From Camelus dromedarius (Eukaryota), in contig NC_087436.1 of NCBI RefSeq assembly GCF_036321535.1, positions 13,578,001 to 13,642,000 of the forward strand: a DNA stretch of 64,000 bases. The letters are read 5' to 3'. A program made the translations under genes and the position numbers. Under the pieces are notes generated by a model. The model was not told the DNA's origin. It saw only the letters and a list, made by a program, of their open reading frames with translations, and made no database searches. This document shows positions 1,045 to 59,315 of the stretch, one piece after another. Every line of letters begins with the position of its first letter. Position 1 is the first letter of the stretch.

Positions 1045-3402
1045 CTAGGACTTTATTGCAGCTCTCAAATTGAACCAAAACCCCTCCCGCTGCATTTCAT
1101 CAGCGGGCCACTCCAGGTAGGTCTTGGTGTTCATTATCTTCCGCAGTTTACAGAAGCGCTGGGGAATGGCCTTCCTCTCAATGGGCTCCAGCAGGATGAG
1201 GATGGCGGCGTCATCGCTCTCGTCAAAGAGACGGAAATGGGAGAAGTCCAGTTCGTACTTGCACCACTCGCTCTTCACAAAGTTCTCCGAGAGCACAAAG
1301 ATGGTTTTGTGGCTCTTTTCAATGCAGTCGATGATATTGTCAATAATCCATTTGCCAGGAATGAAGTCCCGCTTGTGAAGACACAACTTGAAGGGCGGGT
1401 TGAAGTGCTCCAGCTCCTGGACCATGAGGTTCTCCACCCAGTAGGAATCCTGCTCACTGTAGGACACAAAGGCGTCATAACAGAGGTCCCCGCGGGGAGC
1501 CTTCTTGGGCTTCCGTTTGGCCTGGAGCCAGGCCCACATCATCTTCATGTACCACACGCCGTGGAAATGGTGGCACAGAACCCCGGTGAGCAGGAGCAAC
1601 AGGAAAAGGGCGCAGCACGCGGCGGACACCACGGCTGCCCTGTGGCATTCAGCCACCGAGAGCCGGGCGTCCTGAACCCGCCGGCCCCGCACGTGGGATG
1701 GAGAGTCACACAGGTAGTTTTCTGGCCAGTCGATCAGGACCTGGGCCAGTGCTCGCTGCCCCTGCGTGAAAGACAGGAAGTCACAGGAGCAAATGAAGCT
1801 GTTGCCGCCGGCTTCCAAAGTCTTCAGCTTTTGAAAAGAGGCAAGTTGCTCCTTAGAGAAAGTACTGATTGTATTTCTACTGATTCTCATAACTAATAAC
1901 GTGGGTAAGGAGGAAGCATCTGGGAGGGTCTTCAACTTATTCCTGGAAATATAAAGTTCTTTGAGTTGCGGCAAAATCAAAGAAAATGAATTGAGATTGT
2001 TATTGCTAATATCTAAAATTTCCAGGGTCAGGGGGATGCAATAAGTTAAACTGTGTATTCTTGTGCTGGACAAGTTCAAGTATTTCATCTTTTCCGGCCA
2101 CTGACAATTTTCAGGCATTGAATCAAAATTATTCTTACTGATATCCAGGTGAGTCAGGTTTTTCAGAGTAAGCAAAACTTCGCCAGTTTTTTCTAATGAT
2201 TTCAAATGATTTTGCCTTAAAATTAAGGTTTGCAGGAAGGGCCAGGCATGCTCACAGGCTGAGTTTTCCAAGTATTCTTCAGACATTAAATTTTCACTGA
2301 GATCCAAATATTCTAACGATTTTAAGTGTTGTGAGAGTAAACAGGGAACCAGAAAAACCTTACTGTTTTCTATTATGATTCTTTTCACTTTTCCCGTGAG
2401 TGAATATATACTGCTCAGATCGTAAAATAAGAAAAAATTTGGAATAGTCAACTTCCGTACTGTTAACGTCTCCACGTTACCTAGGTATTTAAGTGTGCCT
2501 AAAACAGGCGTTCTAAATTTACCAAGTCCGTTCAGGGTGCAGCCATCAAACTCTACTTCTAACATCCCAGAAATATAATTCAGCAGTTTCACCAGCTCAC
2601 TAAAACTTTCATCAGTGATTTTTACATTTCTAAAGGTCAACTTGTTAATCCATGTATTGGTTTCATAGACGGCTATTTCTGAAATAGAGAACGTGTTCAG
2701 ATCAGTATCTCGCAGTTCTAAATGTCCGACAGAGCTTAAAAGATCTCCAAGGATCTCTAGCAGTGAAACCGGCTGCCTCATGCGAAGGATCAGATGAGTG
2801 ATGTTCTGAATTGACCTCAAACTCTTTGGCTCATACCTCTGCAGATTTGAAGCATCGATCTCAAGTTCCTCAAGAAAATTGAGCCCAGAGAAATCCTTTT
2901 CCTGAATCTCGGAGAAGGGGTTACTATTTCCTACTTTCAGAATTCGCAGATTGGGGAGATGAGAAAAAAGAGACGTTTCGCCAAGTGTTCTGTAAGGATT
3001 TCCCAGCAAGTTTAAGAATTTCAAGGCAGAAAGGGTCCTGAACCAGGAAGGTGATAAGTTAGACAAGCGATTATAGGATAAGTCCAAATGTTCGAGGCTC
3101 CTCAGGGGAAAAAAGGAATCTTCCTCTATTGTGTGGACTCCATTGGACCCCAGCCTCAAGGCCTTGAGGCCCACACACCTCTGCAGGTCATTGTTGCCGA
3201 CATAGGTGATCTTGTTATCGGACAGGTCAAGGCTTTTCACAGCTGCCGTGAGCCCTGGGGGGATGGCGTTTAAAGATCTGGCACGGCCATCACAGACGCC
3301 AGTGGGGTCACAAGACAGAGAATGGGCCTGATCAAGGGCCCCTTCCTTGGAGAGGCTGATTGCTGCTGCCAAGACCCACACTGTCCACAAAGCATGTGGC
3401 AT
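1045..3402 (-). CDS. TLR2: Toll-like receptor 2, complete single coding exon, 785 aa (signal peptide, LRR ectodomain, TM, TIR)
   Basis: Uninterrupted [14 protein letters not shown]...[11 protein letters not shown]...YDAFVSYS...[18 protein letters not shown]...LRAAIKS*. The true ATG is at 3402-3400, 16 nt downstream of a splice acceptor (tctcttatttgtag|GTTG, exon starts at 3418). The track's start at 3417 is a TTG. Confidence 0.98.
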
Positions 3403-7389: not shown

Positions 7390-8400
7390 CCCAGGGGTAA
7401 CCAGTGAGCGCAGACGCACCCCCAGCAGGACGCGCCTGTGCAACCTGGAAAGCCTCTACCTGATCCCCGCCATCGCCGCTCGGGGGGACGAGGACGGAGG
7501 CGGCCAGGGCGCACAGAGCCGCCAGCGAGAGGGCGGCCCTAAGGGGAGGCCGAGCCACTGCCCACTCCCGCCTCCGGGATGCGGCCGCCTGGAGCCCTCG
7601 GAAGCGCCCTGCGGCCACCCCCTTGGAGGCTGGAGGGCGCTGGGCCCCGCCGCGGCCGGCGGGCACCGGGACGCCATGGGCTGGGCGTACCTGGGCCGCG
7701 CCCCGTCCCCTCTGGGCAGCTCCTGCTTCTCCCCCGGGCTCGCCTCCACCGGGCGGGTGTCCACATCCACGCGCGGGGCCGCGCAGACAGGACTGCGGGA
7801 GCGTCGACGGCCTGGGGACCGGGTGCTCCCGCCACCCCAGCGCCCGCGCCGCCTCCCCCGTACCCGAGTCGCGAGACTGGGACCCCGGGTGCCACCGATC
7901 GGGGAGCAGAGACCCCTGGCGCCCGCATCCGCGCCGCGGGCACCCTCCGGCCCCGCCTGCCCTCCCGACCGGGGACGGCGGCGGAGCTACGAGGCCCGCG
8001 GAGCGCGCTTTCCACACGACGTACCTGGGCGGCCGCGCCTTCTGCCGCCTCGGGTCGGGACCCGCCCGCGCCCAGGAGAACCTGCAGAGAGCAGTGCGTG
8101 CGGCCGGCGCCTCCTTCTCCCGGTGGGCGGGGACCACCCGCTCCGCGGAGTGCGCCTGGCTCCTGTGACCAGGGACACAACGGCACCTCCGCCCCTCCCC
8201 GCGGGCTCGGTCAGGTGACCGTCACCGAGGTCCTGCCCTGACAGCAGCCTCGTGCCGGGCCCGGGTCAGAAAAGATTGCTGGGACCTGGGTGGGGGTCGC
8301 GGGGCAGCGGAACGAGAACCGGGATGCTTGAGTCCACACCACCCCAACCCCGACCCCGCCACCCCACAGCCCCCTCCAACCTGGGATTCCCCCAAGGACA
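7390..8400 (-). promoter_or_regulatory. TLR2: CpG island / TLR2 promoter with GC boxes and a kappaB site
   Basis: Very high GC and CpG density. GC boxes at 8125-8132 and 8354-8360; GGGATTCCCC (rc GGGGAATCCC) at 8383-8392; ETS-type GGAAGT motifs on the minus strand just upstream (~8625, ~8675). Confidence 0.85.
8025..8110 (-). other. TLR2: TLR2 non-coding exon 1 (5' end approximate)
   Basis: Minus-strand donor CCCAG|gtacgtcgtg at 8025/8024, matching the human TLR2 exon-1 donor as I recall it; lies inside the CpG island. Confidence 0.7.
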
Positions 8401-11400
8401 GAAGCAGATTTCGAAACCAAAGAGAAGGCTTATTACCCTGCCAGTATTTTCTTCAAGCTTCAGGCACTCAAAGCCTCTTATTGCCCTGAAACATGCCGCT
8501 TTTACACGTCTCCGTTCTTCTCCATCCTCGGAAGTCCAAATTCCAGCTCGCGAATTATGCCTGATACCCACCTGTGCTCCTCCTCCTTTTCAGCACAACC
8601 CACCGGCCAGTGTATGTCCAGGGTCCACTTCCACCCGCAAGCCTGTGCTCTCCTGCGTTATATAACTCCCCAGTCACTTCCCAGACTGACACAGCAAGAT
8701 TTTGCCTGAGTTGCAGTTAAGGACAGCCCAGATGTTTTAAAACTTTCAGTCCTGTGGCAGTCTCCTGGTGGTGCATGACCGCCTCTGGCACCTACCTCCG
8801 ATCCCTGCTCTTACCATGAGAAGATGTGGGCTCCCGCCTACATCCAAGATTTTGAACCTTAGTCCATACCTTGCTCATTTCTATCCTTGCTTCTCAAAGT
8901 AAGTAATTTCAAAACCAGTCAGACTGGCTTTCTTCATGGCCCCAGAAACTAGTGAGGCATGTTTCTAGGGGAAACAAATAGCTTTTAAAAATTAAGCTGC
9001 CTTAATATTCATAAACTACATTTTATATTCACAATTACATTTGATCTTCCCAAATTGAGGTGGGAGGCTGAAGAAGTATTCTTGTTCCTCTTTTACACGG
9101 GAGGAAATGCCATGCAAATTGCAAGTGGCAGAAGTGAGATGTGAAACCAGAATTCTACCCTATGTTCAGGGTTCCTTCTGATACCCTGGTTTCTTGCCCC
9201 AACCTTCTATCTACCCTATTCTACATGCCTAGTGCTCAGTAAAGGTTCCAAACTCTGACAAACTTAATCACTAGGCTTAACGTGATGTGATGTGAACTTG
9301 AGAGAGTGGAGTCTGATTTTCCATATAGATTACTGATTACTGTGTGGAGATTTGTCTGTATCCCTGACCATCCAGGCCCTTCAGATGTCTGAAAGACTTT
9401 CTTCTTCTTACTTCTCCACCTCTTTTCCTCATGATTTCTCAACTGTGTACTTAAGAAAACTTCTTTCCAATTTCTTTGCCTTGAAACCCAAAACCTCTGT
9501 TCTTTCTCTGTCTAGCTTTTCTAGATGAACTGCCTAGATTGATTGATTTTATTGCTTCATAATCCCAAAGTCAATTCGAATATTCTGGCAAAGTTAGGTG
9601 GAAATCATTTATTTACCCACAACTTATTACTGGTGTCCTCTGTATACAGTGAAGATTTTTCTAAACATTCTCAGGAAGCTATTAGCACATTTTACTCAGG
9701 AACATTCTTACATGTGTTCAGTTCTTAACGTTTGCAAAGCTCTATCACATAAATCTTTTCACCTGAATCTCACACTAACACATGAAATAAATAGTTCTGA
9801 TATTACACCTTCAGGTCAAGTGATTAAAGAACTTGCCTCAAGTCACATGACTCACAGCAGCCAAGTGACAAATCCCAGGTCAGACTCCAAAACTCCTCAG
9901 CTTCTTTTCATTGTGACCTGAGACCTCCTCTAACTCCCTACAAAACTGTTTTTTCAGTTAGAAAATGAACAAAATATGGAAAAGTATTTGGTAAAAATGT
10001 AATGCTCATGGTATCTATATTTTGGAAACTGACTGAAATTCTAAAGTGAAGTTATCAAAAAACAGTCTGTGTCTTGTTCACATACAATATTTTGTAATAG
10101 TTAAAGAAAATAATAATACATCCATCAAAAACCACTTAATGAAAATCTGCTATAATCCTTGCACTAATACACAGATCTTTGTACACAAACACTCATTCTG
10201 CAAATTTTTTCTGCTTTGAACAGGTTTCAGTAACACCTGTAATTTTTTAAGAATCCTACTTGCTACTGCTTATGCAAAATAATGATAGCAAAATTCTAAA
10301 TCAAAATAGAGACAAGTTTTGAAAACTGAGAATATTTCATTGTGTAGATATTTTTCTTTTACCAACTAGAATTATTCTTTAACTCAAACCCTCCCTGCTG
10401 GGCAATGGCCTTCCTCTCAATGGGCTCCAGCAGGATGAGGATGGCGGCGTCATCGCTCTCGTCAAAGAGACGGAAATGGGAGAAGTCCAGTTCGTACTTG
10501 CACCACTCACTCTTCAAAGTTCTCCGAGAGCATAAAGATGGTTTTGTGGCTCTTTTTGATGTAGCTGATGATATTGTCAATAATCCATTTGCCAGGAATG
10601 AAGTCCCGCTTGTGAAGACACAACTTGAAGGGCGGGTTGAAGTGCTCCAGCTCCTGGACCATGAGGTTCTCCACCCAGTAGGAATCCTGCTCACTGTAGG
10701 ACACAAAGGCGTCATAACAGAGGTCCCCGCGGGGAGCCTTCTTGGGCTTCCGTTTGGCCTGGAGCCAGGCCCACATCATCTTCATGTACCACACGCCGTG
10801 GAAATGGTGGCACAGAACCCCGGTGAGCAGGAGCAACAGGAAAAGGGCGCAGCACGCGGCGGACACCACGGCTGCCCTGTGGCATTCAGCCACCGAGAGC
10901 CGGGCGTCCTGAACCCGCCGGCCCCGCACGTGGGATGGAGAGTCACACAGGTAGTTTTCTGGCCAGTCGATCAGGACCTGGGCCAGTGCTCACTGCCCCT
11001 GCGTGAAAGACAGGAAGTCGCGGGAGCAAATGGAGCTGTTGCTGCCGGCTTCCAAAGACTTCAGTTTGGGGGGGAAAAAATCAAGTTGTTTGTTAGAGAA
11101 AGTTTTATTTTCCTACCTATTACCAAGGAAGGAAGCATCTGGGAGGGTCTTCAACAGATACTTGAAAATGTTAAATTCTTTAGGATATGACAAAATAAAA
11201 GACTTTATTGCTAACATCTAATATGCCTAGAGTCTGGGAAACACTGAGTGTTAAATTGTGTAATTTTGCACTGGATAATTTCAATTATGTTTCCTTTTCT
11301 GGCCACTGGTAAGAACCAAGTGTACACTGACCAAGACCAATGTTAGTCAGATTTTTCTAGAGTAAGTAACATTCTCCAGAGTTTATAGATTATTTTGTCT

Positions 11401-11934
11401 TAAATTCAAACTCTGTAGGAAGCCTCACACATCCTTACGAACTGACTGTTTCAATTAGTCTCCAAGTATCAAATTTTCACTGAGATCCAGGTATCCTGTG
11501 GATTTGAAATATTGCATGCCAAGATGTGGTTGGTATTAAGCAGACTTTGGCACTTTCAACTGTGAATATCTTTAGTTAATATAAAACAAGCATGTCTTTA
11601 AAGTTCTGTCATCATGGAAGATTCTCATAGCTAAGCTCTGTTGTTATTATAGTTTCTGTTGAGCCTGGTCTGATCATGGAATCTCAGCCACCCCATTTTC
11701 CATTTTCCTGAAGTACAGTCTTCCAGTTCGACATCCAATAACTGTTTTTCAAATCTTACTGTTTAATTACTTCAATTTGTTTTACTATTAGTTTTTTCGC
11801 TGTGAGCCTGAGTGTTAAGATTTTCTTGTTACCTGTGATCTCATGTGAAGAGCAGTGTTTCTCACATTTAAATACTTTGAAAACTTCAAAGATTGCCAAA
11901 AACCTTTCAGAATAAAATTGACCTCTTCATATCT

Positions 11935-13882: not shown

Positions 13883-16109
13883 AAAGAGGGAAGGAGATTT
13901 TTCTTCAAGTTCTTTGATGCTCTATCCCAGAAGCAAAGGACCGAGCTATGAAGATGACATTGAGATAAGCTGCTATAATTTAGGTCCAAATATACGAGAC
14001 TGTCAAGGACAAGGCAAATAATTTTCATCTGTTGCAGGACTTGTTCTAGACGAAAGAAAAGGAGCTTCCAAATTCACATACACCTGCTGAATGTGGCTGG
14101 ATGTAACTGTTATGAGGGCGTGGGCTTTGCTCTCCTTTTTGCAGTGAAGTATCATCAGCCCTGAGAGCATGGAAGGTACTGTCACCTACTACTTGTTGGG
14201 TGGGGAACTGACATGCCCCTTCAGAGCATCAATTAGGTCCAGAGGAATGGAGTATAAACATTGGAGATTCAGCTGGAACTGCAAGGAGAGAACTCTGACC
14301 GGTGGCTTCTTGCTCCAGCTTCCTACCATTGCCACACAATAGCCGACCTCATTTAAAGACAAGAATGAAGACATACAGTGTATTCTTTCCAATCACAGAG
14401 TCAGACACAACCGTGAGTGAGCAACTGGTATCGTTGTAATATCTGTAAGGGTTTTATGTCCTCATCAGGCAGGAAGAATATGAAAAGAACACAAAAGTTC
14501 ATCCACTTCCAAATTCCTTGGAGCTCCTTGGAAAATATTTTGAAATATCTAGACTCAAATAACTGTTAAATCCAACCATGTGGTGTGGCAGTCTGGGTAG
14601 GAGATGCTACCTTCTGTGTGGATGGAAAAAATGAGCTCATGATAATGACAAACCCAGGGACATGAGCTGTGTGACCACTGTCTTCTTCAGGTCCCAGTCA
14701 TATTATAAAGCATAACCAGGGTTCAGTGCGTACTAAACAGGGTCACAGACGAGACTACTGCCAGCTTCCTGGTCAGTATCATTGGCCAACTGTCTAAGAG
14801 GGAATCCCCGAATTATGTATGGTGCTGTAATGTCACTTAAACTATTTTAACATTTAATTAGCTGAGTTTGTCAGTAGGATCAAACAAAAGCTAAGGTTCC
14901 TTTTAAATGGTGTTTAAATTCGGTATATTTATAAATAAATATAGTCCAACCTAAAAGCTGAAGGAATGACAAGGTTTTTAATTTGGCAAATTTAGTAATT
15001 TAGATAGTAAATCATAAAGCCAGGGCAAACTTCTGAATTATCTCTTCTGCAGACAAAATTTTGTGGGGATATTAAAATAATGCCAACATTGACAAAATTA
15101 AATTTGAGTCACTAGAGAAAGAAATGTGCTAAGTGCTTCCTTTCTCCCCATGTTAACTGCTGCTCTTCCTCCTCTGCTGTGTCCACAGCTTCCTCCAGCC
15201 TGCATCAGTTGTGGCCTCATCTTCCAGTCTGCCAGTGTCCTTCTGTGTCCTGCCAGTGCTCCTGCCTCTTCCATATTTATTTAAAGCAAACAAACAAACA
15301 AAAATCAACGACATCTATCTTCCTCAGGTGTCTCTCTTTCTCTTCTTTCATACACCAGCTCTGGAAAGAGCGCTTCACATGTCCAGTCTCTATTTCCTCT
15401 CCTCTTGCCCTGTCTTCACTCTCCTCCAATAAGGCTTCCACCCCTGTGACTCCAAACAGCTTGCAAAGGTTATCAGCGATCACTATGTCGCTGACTCTCT
15501 TCCTGTCGCCTAGAACAGTTAGAACAGATCTCATTGTGACACTCCTTCCTTCTTAAAACATCCTCTCCCTTTGCTTCCATGACTCCACATGCTTAGTTTC
15601 CCTTTTTGACTCTCCTTTTCAGACTTATCCTTCCCTTCGCTGTTTCCCAGGTCTAGATCCTAGGCCACTCCTCACTGGCTGCTTTCTTCCTGAGGAGTCT
15701 CGTCTGTGCTCATCTGCGTGCCAGCTCCTTTCCAGTTGAAGTCTCCTGCACAGACATCTCAACAAGCTGCAGACCTAGAGAGGCAGCTGCCTTCTTGAGA
15801 CGTGTCCACGTGGGTGTCTCAGAGCAGTCCACTCAGCATGTCCAAGTTTGAGCTCATGACACCTCTTCCCGAGGCTGACCCCCTCCCAGCGTTCTTTATT
15901 TCAACACCTGGCACCACCATGCACCCAGATGACTCTGCTGGGAGACTTGTCCTGCTGATTTTACCTCGAATCCATCCAACTCTTTTTACTCCTACTTTCG
16001 TCATCCTAGTTCAAGCTACCTTCACCTGTTGTCTCGACTCCAAAAACAGCCTCCCAGTGGTCTCACCTGCTTTGCCTTCTCCGTATCGCTTGCTTCACCC
16101 TGCATCTAG

Positions 16110-16751: not shown

Positions 16752-16872
16752 CCCTCCACCATCACTATCAACCCCACCATCACCACCACCTCCATCATTA
16801 CAGAATCGCCAGCACCACCACCACCTCCACCAGCACCACCGCCACCTCCACCAGCAGCATCACCACCACCTG
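16752..16872. repeat. Degenerate (CAC/CCA)n trinucleotide repeat
   Basis: caccatcac...agcaccaccaccacctccaccagcaccaccgccacctccacc. Confidence 0.9.
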
Positions 16873-17895
16873 CCGCAGAGACTCACTTCTCCTTCAGGTC
16901 CCCACTCACCTTCACTTCCCTTACTTTTCACCCTAGATATGCCTTCCTTTCCTTCATAGCATTTAGCTTAGTTCGTAGCTGTGTCCTCCCAAGTGTGTGA
17001 TTAATGCCTGCCTCTTTCACCAGGCCATAAACAGAACTGGTGTGTTTAACTCACCATTGTATTCTCAGTGTTTACCCAGTAACTTGTATGTAGTACGGTT
17101 CAGTAAAAACTTTTGAATAGATAAATGAATCACTCAAGATAATCAGGAAATGAAGAACTATAAAATGGGGCACGGAATAGAGCTTGAAGAATGGAGGAGA
17201 AGTCAGTGAACACTGTCAAATTGGGTGAGTAGAATCCAAAGCGGGGATGGAGGAGTGGGAGGTAATTACTTCAGTTGAGACCTTACCTTGTGTTAATCTC
17301 TCCGCGTGTTGTTTAATGTGTGTTTGTTTAATGCGTTAGCAAGTCTATGAGGCAGGCATTATCTGCATTTTAAACTTAAAGAGGCTCAGAAGGGTCCGAG
17401 GCCTGCCAGGTGACACAGTTAAGATTGAAGCCTCCTTCTGTCTGATTTCCAAGCCCCTGAACCATGCATTTCACTAGGTTTCCATAGACAACTTCCTAGG
17501 CTTCACAATCTTGCTAGACTTGATCGATGAGAATAATATTATTGAATGAGAATGTGCCTGAACACTCAAAGGACAGAAAAGGCTAGATTTGTTATAGTGT
17601 ATATGCATGTGCCCCTATATTGTTGCAAAGTTTCTTTATATAAACGTTGCCCCAATGCGTTGCACAATTCAAGGGTGATTGCCTCATGTGAGACTCTTAA
17701 GCAAAACAAACCCGGCCTGAAATGATGTCATTTACTATTTCAAGTCCAAGAAGGAAGTTAAATGATGATTGAATAATGGCTCGTATGGAACATTCTCAAA
17801 TACCAATTGATTTTCCTTCCTGTTTAAGTGAGGTTGTGCACATATAGTGCTTAACAGAAAGCTTGGCATAGAGAAAGAGATCAATCATCGTTAGC

Positions 17896-18740
17896 TGGTG
17901 GTATTATGGTCATGATCATGATTGTTCCTGGCTCATTACAGCTCTTCGCTTATTTTCTGCATACATCTAAACTATTAGTTCTTAAAAATATGCTGTGCTG
18001 GCTCAAAAAGACTCACATGAGTCGCGGCCAAAGTCAGCTTCTGAACTGACTCAGGGCAGCTGCCAACCGTGGCCCATGCACCACAGGGCACAGACCCAGA
18101 GCTGAACCGGCCGGTGTCCAGGGCTCAGCACAACCCCTCGGCGCCCTCCTCCACCGTGTTATGGGAACAACGGAGCATGGCTTGTAAGGGCAAGAGCTTT
18201 GTGGTCACAGCAAGTTGGTTTCAGAGCTTGCCTCTTCCACCTGCCCACTCTGTCACCGATCACAAGACTCAGTTTCACATCTGTTACAGGGGGACGATAA
18301 TTCTTAGCCAGAGGACAGTGCCAGGAATCTGGTAAATGTTCAGTGTTAGCTATTATTTTTAAGAAAGGTCCTGGCATTGAAACTATGGGAACTCAGTTCT
18401 TGCTCTAGTTTGCTGGAGGTTGGCCAGTCTACTCAAATTGTCATTTCTCCTGGAAGAAAGGAATATCACACTGTCGCTTGCTTGGCCCACAGCCACCCTT
18501 CTATTTCCTGATTTCCCGAACCAGTTGGTTCAGCGCTGGGTCTGTGCTCCGTGGTGCATGGGCCACGGCTGGCAGCTGCCCTGAGTCAGTCCAGGAGCTG
18601 ACTTTGCCAGAGACTCATGTGAGTCCTTTAGAGCCAACACAGTGTATTTTTAAGAACCAATATTTCAGCATGTACGCAGAAAATAAATGAAAAGCCGTAA
18701 TGAGCCAGGAGCAATCATGATCATGATCATAATAAAACCA
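17896..18740. repeat. Long inverted repeat: arms ~17896-18115 and ~18520-18740, spacer ~400 bp containing a MIR fragment (~18170-18360)
   Basis: Manual alignment of 17902-18108 to the reverse complement of 18527-18734 gives 25 differences over 208 columns (~88% identity). Confidence 0.95.
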
Positions 18741-20472
18741 TGAAAATCCTGACCATTGCCCCCAGCCCCACAGAACCTGCTAAGATTAGTGATGGCATCT
18801 CCAGGTAGCGAGGGAGCAGGAGGAACGTCACCTCGTCGACCGTGAACCTGCTACGGGTGCAATGAGGTCTGATCCTCCCTCAACTGTCCATCTGTCTGAC
18901 GGTCAAGACTGGCTTCTGAAAAATTAGGATGCTCTGACTCTTTTTTGTTGTGAGATATACTATTTCAGAGTGACTTAAAAACATTTCTGACCTGAAAGTA
19001 AAGCAGGGAGGCAGTGCTAAGTGCAGTCTTCACCTAGTGACCATCTCTGTAAAACGAACTTACTAGAGTAATTGTGAAAATTAGGCAAAATGCCACGTGC
19101 AAAACACAAACAGTGCCTGGCCTTTTGTGACCTCATGAGCCCTGGTCAGAAGACAAGCTGTTGACCGAGGAACTCTTAAGACATATGAAATTGCAAAGCT
19201 CAAAGCTGTGTTGGCAGAGGATGAAAATTCAGAGAGGAAATTAAACGACGTGAGTGGGTGTGGACATCTGGGTAAATTTTTTCTCCTCAGTCTTTCCTAA
19301 AAAGCCTTTGTCTCTAACCTTAAGCCAATTGCCAGGAAAGTTACCAGATAACAATTCTCCCCCAAATAATCAGATCCCAAACCTACCTTGTCTCCGGCCC
19401 TCTGTGTGCGGAAGACTCAGCAGGCCAGGAAAGGCCTTGTCCAGTGTAGACCAGACAGCAAGTCCCCAGCCGTCCCCCTGTGTCACTGTCAAAGAGACAG
19501 GTGTGACCAAGAAAGAATTAGTCCTTAAGGGACCTGGAGTGGAGCAACCGGTCAGAAATTCTCTGTGAACATCGTGGCGTCGGCATCCACTTGGCTCAGT
19601 AAGTCCCTTTGAGAAAAGGCAGGTATACCAGGGAATGTAAATGCCACTGGGCTTTGGAGTTTAGGATGAATATTGTCTCCTTCTTACCAATTAGACAAGC
19701 TTAGCTTCTCTCGGACAGTGAGAGCAGGGATGACAGGGGTGGAGGTACAACATGGGAGCCGAGGGAGTTGCCTCACACAGGTTCAGTTGGGACAATGAAG
19801 GCAAAGTGTTTGGGAAGAAGGGGGATCCCCTCAGAAGTAGCGCATAGAGTCCAGGACAGGGAAAGGAGACGCAGAAGGACCCACTGAATGACAGCATTGT
19901 TGGCAGAAGGGTTTTGCCCCTTTGTCAGGGGAGGGCTCCGGGTAAATCTTCTCATCACTCTCGGAGGAGGGAGCCCCGGGGCTGGGCTTTGGGGCGGGAA
20001 GGATGGCAAGGATGCTGCTCTCTTTTCCAAGACTGAGGGATGACCTGCTGAGGATGCTGTCCCTGGCACCCACAGAAACACTCAGACCCTTGCCCAACTG
20101 TGCCAACGCCTGCTCTGCCAGGAACCGGGACAGAGGCAGCGCTGTCTGGCCGCAGGACGTCCAGTGAAGGACTGCATTAAAATTCCACTCTTGCATAATG
20201 TGCTTCACAGAAATTTCAGATGTAGGAAATGAAAGTGATGGCTGCGGAGAGCCTGAACTTCCTCTGAAACTGCCCTAGCCGGGCACAAGCCTTCTGTGCT
20301 GGCGAGGGGAGCACGGCAGGAGAGGAGGGGCCTACTGGATGTCAAGCACCTATTGGGTGCCCCCTTATTTGTGTCCTGTCAACATTTACTCCGTGTGTCC
20401 TTTGGTCACCCGTTTGCTAGGGTGAACAGTCCAAAGTCATGGTCCTCGCCCTCGAGAAGCTCACAGTGTTCA

Positions 20473-30843: not shown

Positions 30844-31054
30844 CAATTTTTGTGCACATCTTTTACAGTTTTCCTTAGAAGTCAATTCCTAGAAGAGTTT
30901 TCCAGGTACCTAATACACATCGCCAACCAGTTTACAATCTCATCAGCCATGTAGAAAGTGCTTGCCTCACTTGCCCCTACAGACCCTGAGACTTAAGTTC
31001 ATAGGCAGCCTATTGTTTCAGGTTCTTTCATTTAAATTGATGATAGTAAGCGTA

Positions 31055-31260
31055 ACCAACAGCAGTAGTAGCCAACTGAGGGCTTACTACATGCCAAGCA
31101 CTATGTAAATGCTCATTTAATCCTCACAACGTCTCTATGAGGTCTGTTGCCATTATTAGCTCCATTCTACAGAAGAGAAAACTGAGGCACGGGGAAGCTG
31201 AGAAGGTAGTAAAGCTGGAGTTAGACCCCACGACATCTGGCCTCAAAGGGGATGCTCTTT
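31055..31260 (-). mobile_element. MIR SINE
   Basis: ctcatttaatcctcacaac...attctacagaagagaaaactgaggcac. Confidence 0.8.
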
Positions 31261-33644
31261 GATGAGTCTTCATTAAAATCTAAGCTCCTGGAAGGCGGGG
31301 TCGGTCTCCTCTCCCGCCTCGCTTACTCTAGGGATCCCTGAGTTTCCCCCAGCGGCAGCATAATCCAGCAGAGTAACAACCGTCGTGAAGAGCTCTACAT
31401 GTGGAGACTGGCATGTGACACGTGTACGTATGTGTGTTTAGTGTGCCTTTGCTTGCGGCCAATCCCAGAGTAATTGAAGTATTCTCCAATCATGAAGACT
31501 CTCTTCTTTAACGGCCAGATGGCTGAACTCACACGGGCCCCTCCCACGCATCCTGTTACACACCCTCCTGTGCAGCAGACACCACGCCAGGTGCCAGAGA
31601 CAGCGGTGACCTGGACATGTGCGGAGGCGGGTGTGCGTGTGGATGCTGTAACGGACCCGACAACAGTAGCTGAAACGAGAGTTTGTTTCCCTTCCCGCTG
31701 CAGAGTCAGGGGTCCGGGGCTGCAGGCACCTCTGTGGAGCTGGAGGCCCAGGCTCCTGCTCTCTTGTTGCCCTTCTGTCCCCTCGAGCGAAGATCAGCCA
31801 ACGTTTTCTGTAAAGGACTGGAGTAGATATTTTAGGCCATGGCAACAACTCTGCCCCTTTAGGTGAACGAACAAGGAGTGGCCGGGTTCCGGTACAACGT
31901 GATCCACAAAACAGGCGTGTACAGTGCGTGATGTGCAGCAGGTACCCGACAGAAACAGGAGGGAGCTCCATCACTTCTGCTTGGGTCTGCCTACCTCCCA
32001 CCATGGGGGGCGCCGCGCCCCTGCCCCGTCCAGGCTCAGGAAGGTGACTTGCATCTTCCCCGCAGCCCACCTGCTCCCTGCTGCTCTGACGTCCCCTGCA
32101 CGCCAGCAGGCTGGGCCATCGCCCCCCTCAGCCTCCCATCCACCGCCTGTTTCGAAGCTCCCCTCACAACTGACCTTCCCCCGCCACCTCGCTTGGTGTC
32201 CACTGGCTCCAGCTGGGACGGTGACGACACCAGTGCCGGTCATTGGCTGGTCCCTCACGGCTCCCTCATCTGACCTGGTCCTCCAGCGTTTGACCTGATG
32301 CTGGCCACTGCCTCCCCTTCTTGGCTTCCTCCAACCTCATCAGTGTTTCCTTCTGATCTTCTCTGCCGCTGCCTCCTCTACTAAATGTGAGGTCCCAGGC
32401 TCACTCCCTAAGACTCTTCTCCTCGCAAGGCCCCCATCACTCACTCCCATCACATTAGAACCCTCGGCAGGCTGAGGATGCCCCAGTGGACGGCTCCAGC
32501 CCTAAGCCTCACCTGGCTTCTGATCTGTCGGTGCGGCTACCTCTACGCTGTCTCCACTGGCACACGAGGCCTCTCACACGGAACCCGTCTGACATGCAAC
32601 CCTCAGGCCCCCGCCCCTGCCCGGTCTCCTCCTCTCAGTCAGGGGCATCACCACGACCCAGCTCTCTGCCATTGCCTCCCAGTCTGAGGTGTTCACCTCC
32701 TGCACCCCCTCAACCAGCCTGTCCACACACAACCTGCCTGTCCTGTCCCTCATCCTGCTGATGGGATGGGGGACTCTGACTGCTGTGACTGTTACTCCCG
32801 CACTCCCAGTACCAGCTCTCCTGCCAGCAGTCGGTGATTTCTTTGACACTCAAATGGGGTAATGTTCCTTCTCTCTTAAGACTCTCCAGGTACTGCTCGC
32901 TGGACTTCCCATTCTCTCTTTGGTGGCCAAAAAGGCCTTACAGAGGTGGCCTCTGTCCACCTTGCTGGCTCCCCTCTTTCCCCTGTGTCCCTTACTCATG
33001 GGGCCCCTGCCCCTCGATCTCCTGCCCCAGGGCCTTTGCACCTGCTCGTCCCTCTGCTTTCTCCTCATCCTCATCAAGTTTTACCTGGGATGCACCTCCT
33101 CAAGGAGACCTTCCCCACCCACCCCTAGTCCCCACTGCCACCTCCCCCGAGCTGATCACATCACCCTGAACTGCCCTCACAGCACATGTCATACCCAAAA
33201 TATTCCTTGAACCTTCTGTGGGCTTTTTCCCTAATCCTGCTTCTGGAATGTGCCAGCAGGACCTCATCTGTCCTGTTCTCTGCTGCACCCACAGCCCGCG
33301 GGGCAGGTCCCAGCTCCTGGGAGGCGCTCAGTGTGTACTTTTAAAAGAATAAAAACTTCCAGGTCCCCACGACTGATTTTATCTTATGGCTGAAAATAAT
33401 ATTCCAGCTGAAGTGAAGGTTTTTTACTTTCTTTTGTGTATAGTGGAATAAATACTTGTTTTGGTTTCTCATGTTTCCCTGAAGGGGAATTGAGGGGTCA
33501 ATGAAAGTAGGGGGAAAATTAGATCCTTGGACCAAGGAGAGAGCAGAACGTGTATTTAATGTCTAGACTCAGTCCAGTGGGGAAGTTTTGAATTCAAAAT
33601 TGAAAATGCTTTGGGGCCTTTTTTCATCAACCTAAATACTATTT

Positions 33645-35280: not shown

Positions 35281-35556
35281 TCACACATTCCCACAGTAAC
35301 CGGAGTCCCTGGACAGCGGGAAATTTGCGTTCCTGTTGGCTGTGGTAGTCCATATGTCCAGGTTCATGTAGGCACGAAACGGGTTAAACCCCGGGTAGTA
35401 TTCCTTGCACATGACCGCCTGGTTGTCCAAGTGAGTCGAGTGCTCCGTGGTGGGACTGACAGGGCAACAGTTGTCATATACGTCATTTTGAGGGGCCCAG
35501 ATGGAACCAAAAAGTCCAGACATTGGAGACAAGCTTCGGGTGCTTGTGAGGTAGGG
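35281..35556 (-). CDS. TMEM131L: TMEM131L terminal coding exon ([22 protein letters not shown]...[10 protein letters not shown])
   Basis: Acceptor cttcag|CCC, phase 0, 276 nt. Matches the recalled KIAA0922 C-terminus and the known TMEM131L-TLR2 synteny. Confidence 0.93.
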
Positions 35557-36542: not shown

Positions 36543-36640
36543 GGGGGAAGGGTATAGCTCAGTGGTAGAGTGCGTGCTTAGCATGCACGAGGTCCTGGGT
36601 TCAGTCCCCAGTACCTCCTCTAAAAATTAATAAATAAACC
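36543..36640 (+). mobile_element. tRNA-Ala-derived SINE (camelid Vic-1-like)
   Basis: gggggaagggtatagctcagtggtagagtgcgtgcttagcatgcacgaggtcctgggttcagtccccagtacctcc plus an A-rich tail; a second copy is at 59225-59315. Confidence 0.85.
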
Positions 36641-59224: not shown

Positions 59225-59315
59225 TTTTGTTTTTTTAACGGAGGTGCTAGGGATTGAACCCAGGACCTCATGCACTCCAGGCACACGCTCTACCACTGAG
59301 CTATACCCTGTCCCC
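59225..59315 (-). mobile_element. tRNA-Ala-derived SINE (Vic-1-like), second copy
   Basis: Reverse complement reads ggggacagggtatagctcagtggtagagcgtgtgcctggagtgcatgaggtcctgggttcaatccctagcacctccgttaaaaaa. Confidence 0.85.

Follow-up and report, generated by a model that had tools for sequence, protein, structure and literature searches.

Upstream of TLR2 in the dromedary (Camelus dromedarius), two stretches of DNA face each other as inverted arms, each with an AP-1 site and an M-box-like sequence. Has selection preserved this pair of motifs twice, as a mirror-doubled enhancer, or is the locus a duplication of an ordinary kind, along with which the motifs were copied? The window analyzed is a 64,000-nucleotide stretch of contig NC_087436.1, and all coordinates are counted from its first letter. 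The inverted repeat is real and far beyond chance. Its best local alignment (17896–18108 against 18740–18527) comprises 214 columns with 26 substitutions (18 transitions, 8 transversions) and one gap. For the slightly shorter arms described in an earlier note on this DNA (17902–18108 and 18527–18734), the counts given there were exact: 208 columns with one gap and 24 substitutions, of which 18 are transitions. Ungapped extension carries the arms to 18115 and 18520, which leaves a spacer of 404 bp instead of 418 bp. In a BLASTN self-search of the window, arm matched arm with an E value of 1e-69, and folding of the repeat yielded z values of −20.9 and −33.1 (20 shuffles per strand), a long stable stem being predicted for both strands. 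The parts of the repeat are the following:

17896 to 18115, plus strand: left arm, the putative original copy (its end is 18108 by gapped alignment and 18115 when extended without gaps)
17910 to 17922, no strand: repeat of the ATCATG type, self-complementary, close to the outer end (right-arm counterpart at 18714–18730)
18106 to 18115, no strand: possible switch point where the left arm ends on its inner side, a perfect 10-bp palindrome (inner end of right arm: near-palindrome, 18518–18531)
18116 to 18519, no strand: spacer, in window orientation in X12 (whole), X16 (17941–18407) and X15 (18384–18705)
18520 to 18740, minus strand: right arm, inverted, 87% identical by alignment and self-search, the putative derived copy

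That the repeat might be an assembly artefact was excluded, since it stands unchanged in X12 and the words sampled from the window were complete in 14 of the 24 runs listed (180 words, share present 1.00); 6 of these 14 runs, from 3 studies, were not marked as a possible source. Four of the 24 runs (X12, X15, X16 and X19) were aligned to the window, and all but X19 cover the repeat. X12 (whole-genome-like, 2,018 million letters) spans the region in a single contig (16879–20450) without any difference or joint, and its depth over the arms was flat (16.4). A literature search, with subscription papers outside its scope, yielded no account of the camel repeat among the papers listed.

The earlier note had called the repeat a local duplication that is not a transposon, and the search for further copies bore this out. 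No third copy of an arm was found within the 64-kb window, and no other contig of X12 matched the arms at a likeness of at least 88%, a comparison that filtered-out records and more diverged copies could escape and that did pick up 18- to 37-nt pieces of nearby old repeats. Neither a target-site duplication (4–10 bp at the arm ends, within the slack tested; old ones decay) nor multiple copies were found, the two hallmarks expected of a MITE or other DNA transposon. Rfam at its gathering score returned nothing on the repeat; its two matches in the window lay elsewhere and were tRNA-like (36548–36619, plus strand, and 59239–59310, minus strand; 84% alike), probably tRNA-derived repeats or pseudogenes. 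A scan of metagenome contigs for the motif pair returned 20 loci, none of which resembled 17500–19200 by BLASTN; phage records gave no match, and neither did viral contigs for a 19-mer common to both arms. Taken together, the repeat is very probably a local inverted duplication.

Which of the two arms is the copy was judged from an old repeat beside the structure; another lies in the spacer:

17780 to 17902, plus strand: decayed SINE-like 3′ half, which meets the left arm at its outer end (score reached by 4 of 500 shuffles)
18186 to 18357, plus strand: decayed SINE-like copy in the spacer, aligning along the SINE copy at 31050–31262 (score reached by 1 of 500 shuffles)

These two calls are the best 2 of 16 pairwise tests and are suggestive at most after correction. 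An iterative SINE profile built from three copies in the window left the test region unmatched and drifted into flanking sequence. We take both copies to be MIR-like, because of a core motif and because nearly all camel SINEs are MIRs. The latter is described for camel genomes, the SINEs of which are almost exclusively ancient MIRs (PMC8605555). The proposal that the right arm is derived is thus weakly upheld: a SINE-like 3′ half does abut the left arm, but this match is just suggestive (one of the 16 tests).

Template switching is the most likely origin of the inverted duplication. A replication or repair polymerase that had copied the spacer would have switched to the opposite strand near 18108–18115, copied ∼213 bases backwards to 17896 and then returned, in the proposed switch order 3-2-1-4; afterwards the arms would have diverged at about the neutral rate, and the motifs would have come along in the copying and not yet been hit by mutation. 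Short palindromes lie at both arm ends, although perfect palindromes of at least 10 bp number 82 across the window. As in published four-point template-switch events (PMC5453318), one arm is the reverse complement of nearby DNA inserted close by, which yields inverted arms around a spacer without any mobile element; the 3-2-1-4 type accounts for 31% of the events described there. Unlike those events, which are short (counted from 14 bp up), the camel piece measures 213 bp, the jump ∼0.4 kb, and the event is old (13% diverged); moreover, four-point events are defined by the ancestral state, and the camel repeat is a putative member.

Divergence between the arms (K2P) was 0.135 (bootstrap 0.086–0.194), or 0.105 (0.059–0.157) when CpG columns were left out. 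A rate of 1.1e-8 per generation at 5 years per generation (PMC7305198) gives a clock of 2.2e-9 per site per year. On this clock, the arms are ∼31 or 24 million years old (with or without CpG columns, respectively; range 13–44). The arms would be older if they had undergone conversion in the past or if the long-term rate were slower. The duplication would presumably predate the split of camel and llama and postdate that from pigs and ruminants. Polarity, age and lack of constraint are all indirect, drawn from the camel sequence itself.

Two other histories of the DNA have to be weighed against a one-off duplication. The arms could belong to a low-copy DNA transposon or MITE with captured host DNA, as its long terminal inverted repeats, and families of the hAT, Tigger and MITE type do occur in camelid genomes (PMC8605555). 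The overall shape would fit, as in MITEs inverted arms enclose a short non-coding inner part and the whole stays below 1 kb. However, unlike MITEs the camel repeat came with neither a target-site duplication (4–10 bp) nor another copy in the window or, at 88% likeness or more, in X12, and its spacer holds a host SINE that is far more decayed than the arms, which makes a transposon highly improbable. Alternatively, the repeat could be far older than its 13% divergence implies, be common to other mammals, and have been kept alike by conversion from arm to arm. The neighboring TLR2 and its pseudogene do convert (589 of 600 columns identical over TM-TIR, ∼60–65% beyond), and in X15 a C>T change at 18675 makes the right arm equal the left at that column. 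Yet this change is a CpG transition, so that ordinary decay accounts for it, and the differences between the arms, mostly transitions, are evenly spread (8 in the 80 columns of the motif block and 17 in the 128 elsewhere). The longest identical tract, 21 nt, was attained in 89% of random placements. Maintenance by conversion is therefore a distinctly doubtful account.

The four motifs of the arms sit at the positions given earlier:

18010 to 18023, plus strand: 14-bp near-palindrome with an M-box-like core, left arm (contains a candidate RNA start at 18015)
18047 to 18053, plus strand: AP-1 heptamer TGACTCA, left arm, a consensus match
18582 to 18588, minus strand: AP-1 heptamer TGAGTCA, right arm, a consensus match
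18612 to 18625, minus strand: 14-bp near-palindrome of identical sequence, right arm

Whether their survival calls for selection was judged by a null model, arm against arm only, in which the 25 differences were placed at random over the 208 columns. The 14-mer and AP-1 both stayed intact in 5.8% of the random trials (P 0.058); for AP-1 together with the 8-mer M-box, the share was 13.7% (P 0.137). These motifs had been chosen after the fact. Retention in both arms is hence at chance level (P 0.06–0.14), and the claim that the module was selectively kept twice is not sustained. With two sequences the test has little power, so it takes away support for constraint but cannot exclude it. We consider it likely that the repeat has no selected function. 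Such motifs are spread over the window, which holds 15 AP-1 sites and 8 M-box-like sites. The motif pair of the arms recurs nearer to TLR2 at 9843–9854, where an AP-1 heptamer and an M-box-like 8-mer overlap at a distance of ∼1.5 kb from the CpG island of TLR2. Outside the left arm, 210 bases away from it, there is a third M-box-like 8-mer (17684–17691). For the M-box-like sites at 703 and 9843, no convincing alignment was obtained (48% identity).

The setting of the repeat is a TLR2 gene with a pseudogene in tandem:

1045 to 3402, minus strand: TLR2 coding exon, intact, 785 aa (reading frame and protein comparison)
10397 to 11514, minus strand: TLR2 pseudogene copy, between the CpG island and the repeat
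16801 to 16860, minus strand: start of P0005, a C. bactrianus protein model (20 codons; the rest of it maps to the pseudogene body)

TLR2 of the window differs from two Camelus reference proteins by 4 residues and from a third by 9, and from nine alpaca and llama proteins by 20–31, which places the window in the genus Camelus. A CpG island lies at 7501–8500, about 10 kb from the repeat, in agreement with the ∼10 kb upstream of the TLR2 promoter stated before. An in-frame first exon in this island (7928–7866, minus strand) belongs to the TLR2 isoform model P0004, which is 27 residues longer. Over TM-TIR (10397–11050 against 1158–1800), 589 of 600 columns agree between TLR2 and the pseudogene, which is absent from the earlier note; beyond, only ∼60–65% are identical. 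The pseudogene has a gap of 2 bases in the block that begins at 10497. Judged from the sequences, this is recent gene conversion between camel TLR2 and its pseudogene, as reported for horse. A TLR2 pseudogene in tandem with TLR2, converted in horse, has been described in mammals (PMC3125219), and the camel copy resembles it in its place beside TLR2 and in the recent C-terminal conversion; camelids, the upstream exons and the repeat are not among what is described in the accessible part of that paper. P0005 (197 aa) joins 16860–16801 to 11040–10510 (minus strand), the codons of its hydrophobic leader lying in a CAC-rich repeat; it may be a membrane-anchored TIR fragment, made up of the membrane part and a truncated TIR part of the pseudogene, or a prediction artefact. 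The idea that the inverted repeat marks a duplicated TLR2 promoter was rejected, the region sharing just repeats, and no paralogy, with the TLR2 5′ region. On the far side of the repeat, a minus-strand reading frame ends near 35283, which looks like the end of TMEM131L.

RNA probably crosses the repeat on the minus strand. The loose ends of X16 contigs bear a template-switch oligo that is used in 5′ single-cell libraries (its motif is given in 10.1101/2021.04.04.438388). X16 is therefore very likely cDNA, each thin contig standing for one molecule; neither X15 nor X16 has a recorded library type, and their RNA status is a guess. X16 contigs cover 17291–17557 at depth 99 and 19412 to beyond 20450 at depth 82, compared with 8–10 over the repeat, contig depth being a poor measure of expression. 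Together with the splice signals, these contigs suggest the following arrangement:

17287 to 17557, minus strand: probable exon (polypyrimidine-CAG acceptor at 17558, GTAAG donor at 17286, X16 contig)
17558 to 19386, minus strand: probable intron of 1.8 kb containing the repeat (inferred; GTAGGT donor at 19386)
19387 to 20450, minus strand: probable upstream exon (inferred; X16 contig)

The first contig ends exactly at the acceptor on one side and 4 bases short of the GTAAG donor on the other, and the second ends 25 bases short of the GTAGGT donor at 19386; no contig spanning an exon–exon junction was found among the X16 pieces listed. Probably, this is a spliced minus-strand RNA that carries the repeat in its intron and belongs to the TLR2 pseudogene. 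Both probable exons look non-coding and have strong splice sites. X15 is unspliced across both splice sites and has a T20 loose end before 16972, where there is neither an A-rich genomic stretch behind nor a canonical signal close by; 16972 is a possible poly(A) site of the minus-strand RNA. X19, which is on record as RNA, contributes scattered 2× pieces, none of those listed lying on the arms, where its depth is zero, and X20–X24 hold small or zero shares of the window.

Does the RNA of the repeat fold, and is it edited? The proposed course is that minus-strand RNA, putatively that of the pseudogene, and low-level plus-strand RNA run through the repeat, and that the arms would therefore pair into a stem of ∼210 bp, which ADAR would edit at a low level and across which reverse transcriptase would jump. 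Signs of both kinds are in keeping with the long RNA hairpin, and ADAR substrate, proposed earlier: three private A>G changes in X16 and template jumps in X15 and X16. Of the 13 differences listed for X16, 11 were at full depth and common to X15. The private changes are:

17938 to 17940, plus strand: two A-to-I candidates, at 17938 and at 17940, from one X16 branch of two (17940 opposite C18696)
18032, plus strand: candidate A-to-I site in the loose end of the X16 contig that jumps from the left arm to 18573 (A in another X16 contig)

ADAR prefers A–C mismatches. All three candidates lie in the left arm within the predicted stem and none has a 5′ G, which fits the neighbor preference of ADAR (PMC5663115). 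The arms make up 9.7% of the bases covered by X16, and A>G accounts for 3 of 23 SNP-like rows; the chance that all three private changes fall in the arms is 0.0009, and that all three are A>G 0.002, both computed after the fact. These sites come from about two molecules and may also be heterozygous SNPs. By depth arithmetic, the edited branch seems to be the one that carries the adaptor tag and starts at 17900, and hence plus-strand RNA; two of the three bases upstream of this start are G, and adaptor orientation can mislead. The candidate changes are A>G on the plus strand, but the main RNA appears to be a minus-strand one, and no T>C in the arms was found among the differences listed. Seven G·U pairs form on the plus strand and 11 on the minus strand, without notable bias towards keeping them.

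In X15 and X16 (RNA by guess), there are single contigs that join left- to right-arm sequence. One X16 contig passes from left-arm position 18034 to right-arm position 18573 over a 5-nt repeat. In X15, one joint (17909–18721; depth 26.9) skips 811 nt over a 10-nt direct repeat, and a second (17904–18384) skips 479 nt over a 5-nt direct repeat, both with non-splice ends. The 10-nt repeat at the hairpin's base derives from the ATCATG-type repeat of the outer arm ends, and the outer base of the left arm is the departure point of two of the three X15 joints. The third (15742–15989) skips 246 bases over a 5-base repeat. Since the piece that it skips is unstructured (z 0.15 and −1.2), jumps also happen without a hairpin. 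Reverse transcriptase is known to slip at hairpin bases over short direct repeats and so to yield false introns (PMC8240250). The camel joints share with such falsitrons (PMC8240250, PMC10275267) the skipped hairpin, the flanking direct repeats of 10 and 5 nt and the lack of splice ends; they differ in that the 811-nt skip exceeds the reported median of 353 nt.

The stem itself resembles the inverted-Alu (IRAlu) hairpins edited by ADAR1 (PMC5663115, PMC13251931) in having arms of a few hundred bases, 85–90% alike and less than 1 kb apart within a putative transcript, and in showing A>G changes without a 5′ G. It differs from them in that the site looks intronic, not 3′ UTR, and in offering three candidate sites and not hyper-editing. 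The repeat would work like an inverted-Alu hairpin but is none, its arms being unique sequence and not SINEs. MDA5 ligands are mostly 3′-UTR IRAlus of high complementarity (PMC13251931), to which an intronic stem of 87% identity is not closely similar. On balance, it is fairly likely that the hairpin forms and is edited.

Two rival readings of the RNA data point in opposite directions. All signs could be artefacts, the A>G changes being SNPs or errors and the joints DNA deletions or amplification chimeras, with the repeat as inert DNA. The unrecorded library types, the few molecules, the missing matched DNA and the X15 joint outside the hairpin would be in line with this. However, the adaptor-tagged ends in X16 and the T20 end in X15 indicate cDNA, and three of three changes being A>G (0.002), all of them in the arms (0.0009), is not what SNPs would be expected to give, even if these chances were computed afterwards; that everything is artefact appears very unlikely. 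Conversely, the left arm could be an active AP-1/MiT-TFE enhancer or promoter-like element that was mirror-doubled and now drives two-way transcription at the pseudogene/TLR2 locus. AP-1 and M-box are intact in either arm, and probable exons of transcribed RNA lie within 0.4–0.7 kb on both sides. In addition, one X16 molecule, with adaptor and an extra G, starts at A18015 (plus strand) after a C, inside the M-box, and the 13 bases upstream of 18015 do not resemble the adaptor (edit distance 10). Capped starts are marked by an unencoded G, but libraries made by template switching contain many false starts (10.1101/2021.04.04.438388), and the start at 18015 is a single contig. Moreover, the motifs were picked after the fact and are retained at chance level, and the window is rich in AP-1 (15) and M-box-like (8) sites, which fall together at 9843–9848 as well, nearer to TLR2. 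The start at 18015, possibly that of a capped RNA, is the sole hint of regulatory activity, and an active enhancer is an unlikely reading. A bolder version, in which a camelid-specific mirror duplication turned an AP-1/M-box element into a two-way start and an ADAR-edited stem in the pseudogene unit tunes TLR2 or pseudogene RNA in camel immune cells, has but a slim chance of being right. The suggestion that the arms are a substrate for inversion of the spacer found no backing, as the spacer has the window orientation throughout and no strand-changing joint was listed in X12, X15 or X16, contigs from which rare alleles are dropped.

The best overall reading, to which we assign a probability of roughly 0.55, is a one-off inverted duplication in the camelid lineage, with drifting arms, a hairpin edited at a low level, and motifs that were merely copied along. 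The duplication is of an ordinary kind, old and local, and its RNA hairpin is probably edited; a putative role in the control of TLR2, in the sense of the two-way element, is quite improbable. From its age estimate, two arms are predicted in llama and alpaca and one in pig and cattle. As a practical warning, cDNA from the locus seems to give a false intron of 811 nt. Beyond this, the locus is a clean case of an inverted repeat that is transposon-free and the RNA of which probably folds into an edited hairpin. If the enhancer reading were true, a single replication slip would have doubled an innate-immune regulatory element and created a dsRNA substrate at the same time, in a lineage without young SINEs. 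Since camels are almost without SINEs beyond ancient MIRs, as far as described in PMC8605555, non-transposon duplications could replace inverted Alus as their short-range substrates of dsRNA formation and editing.
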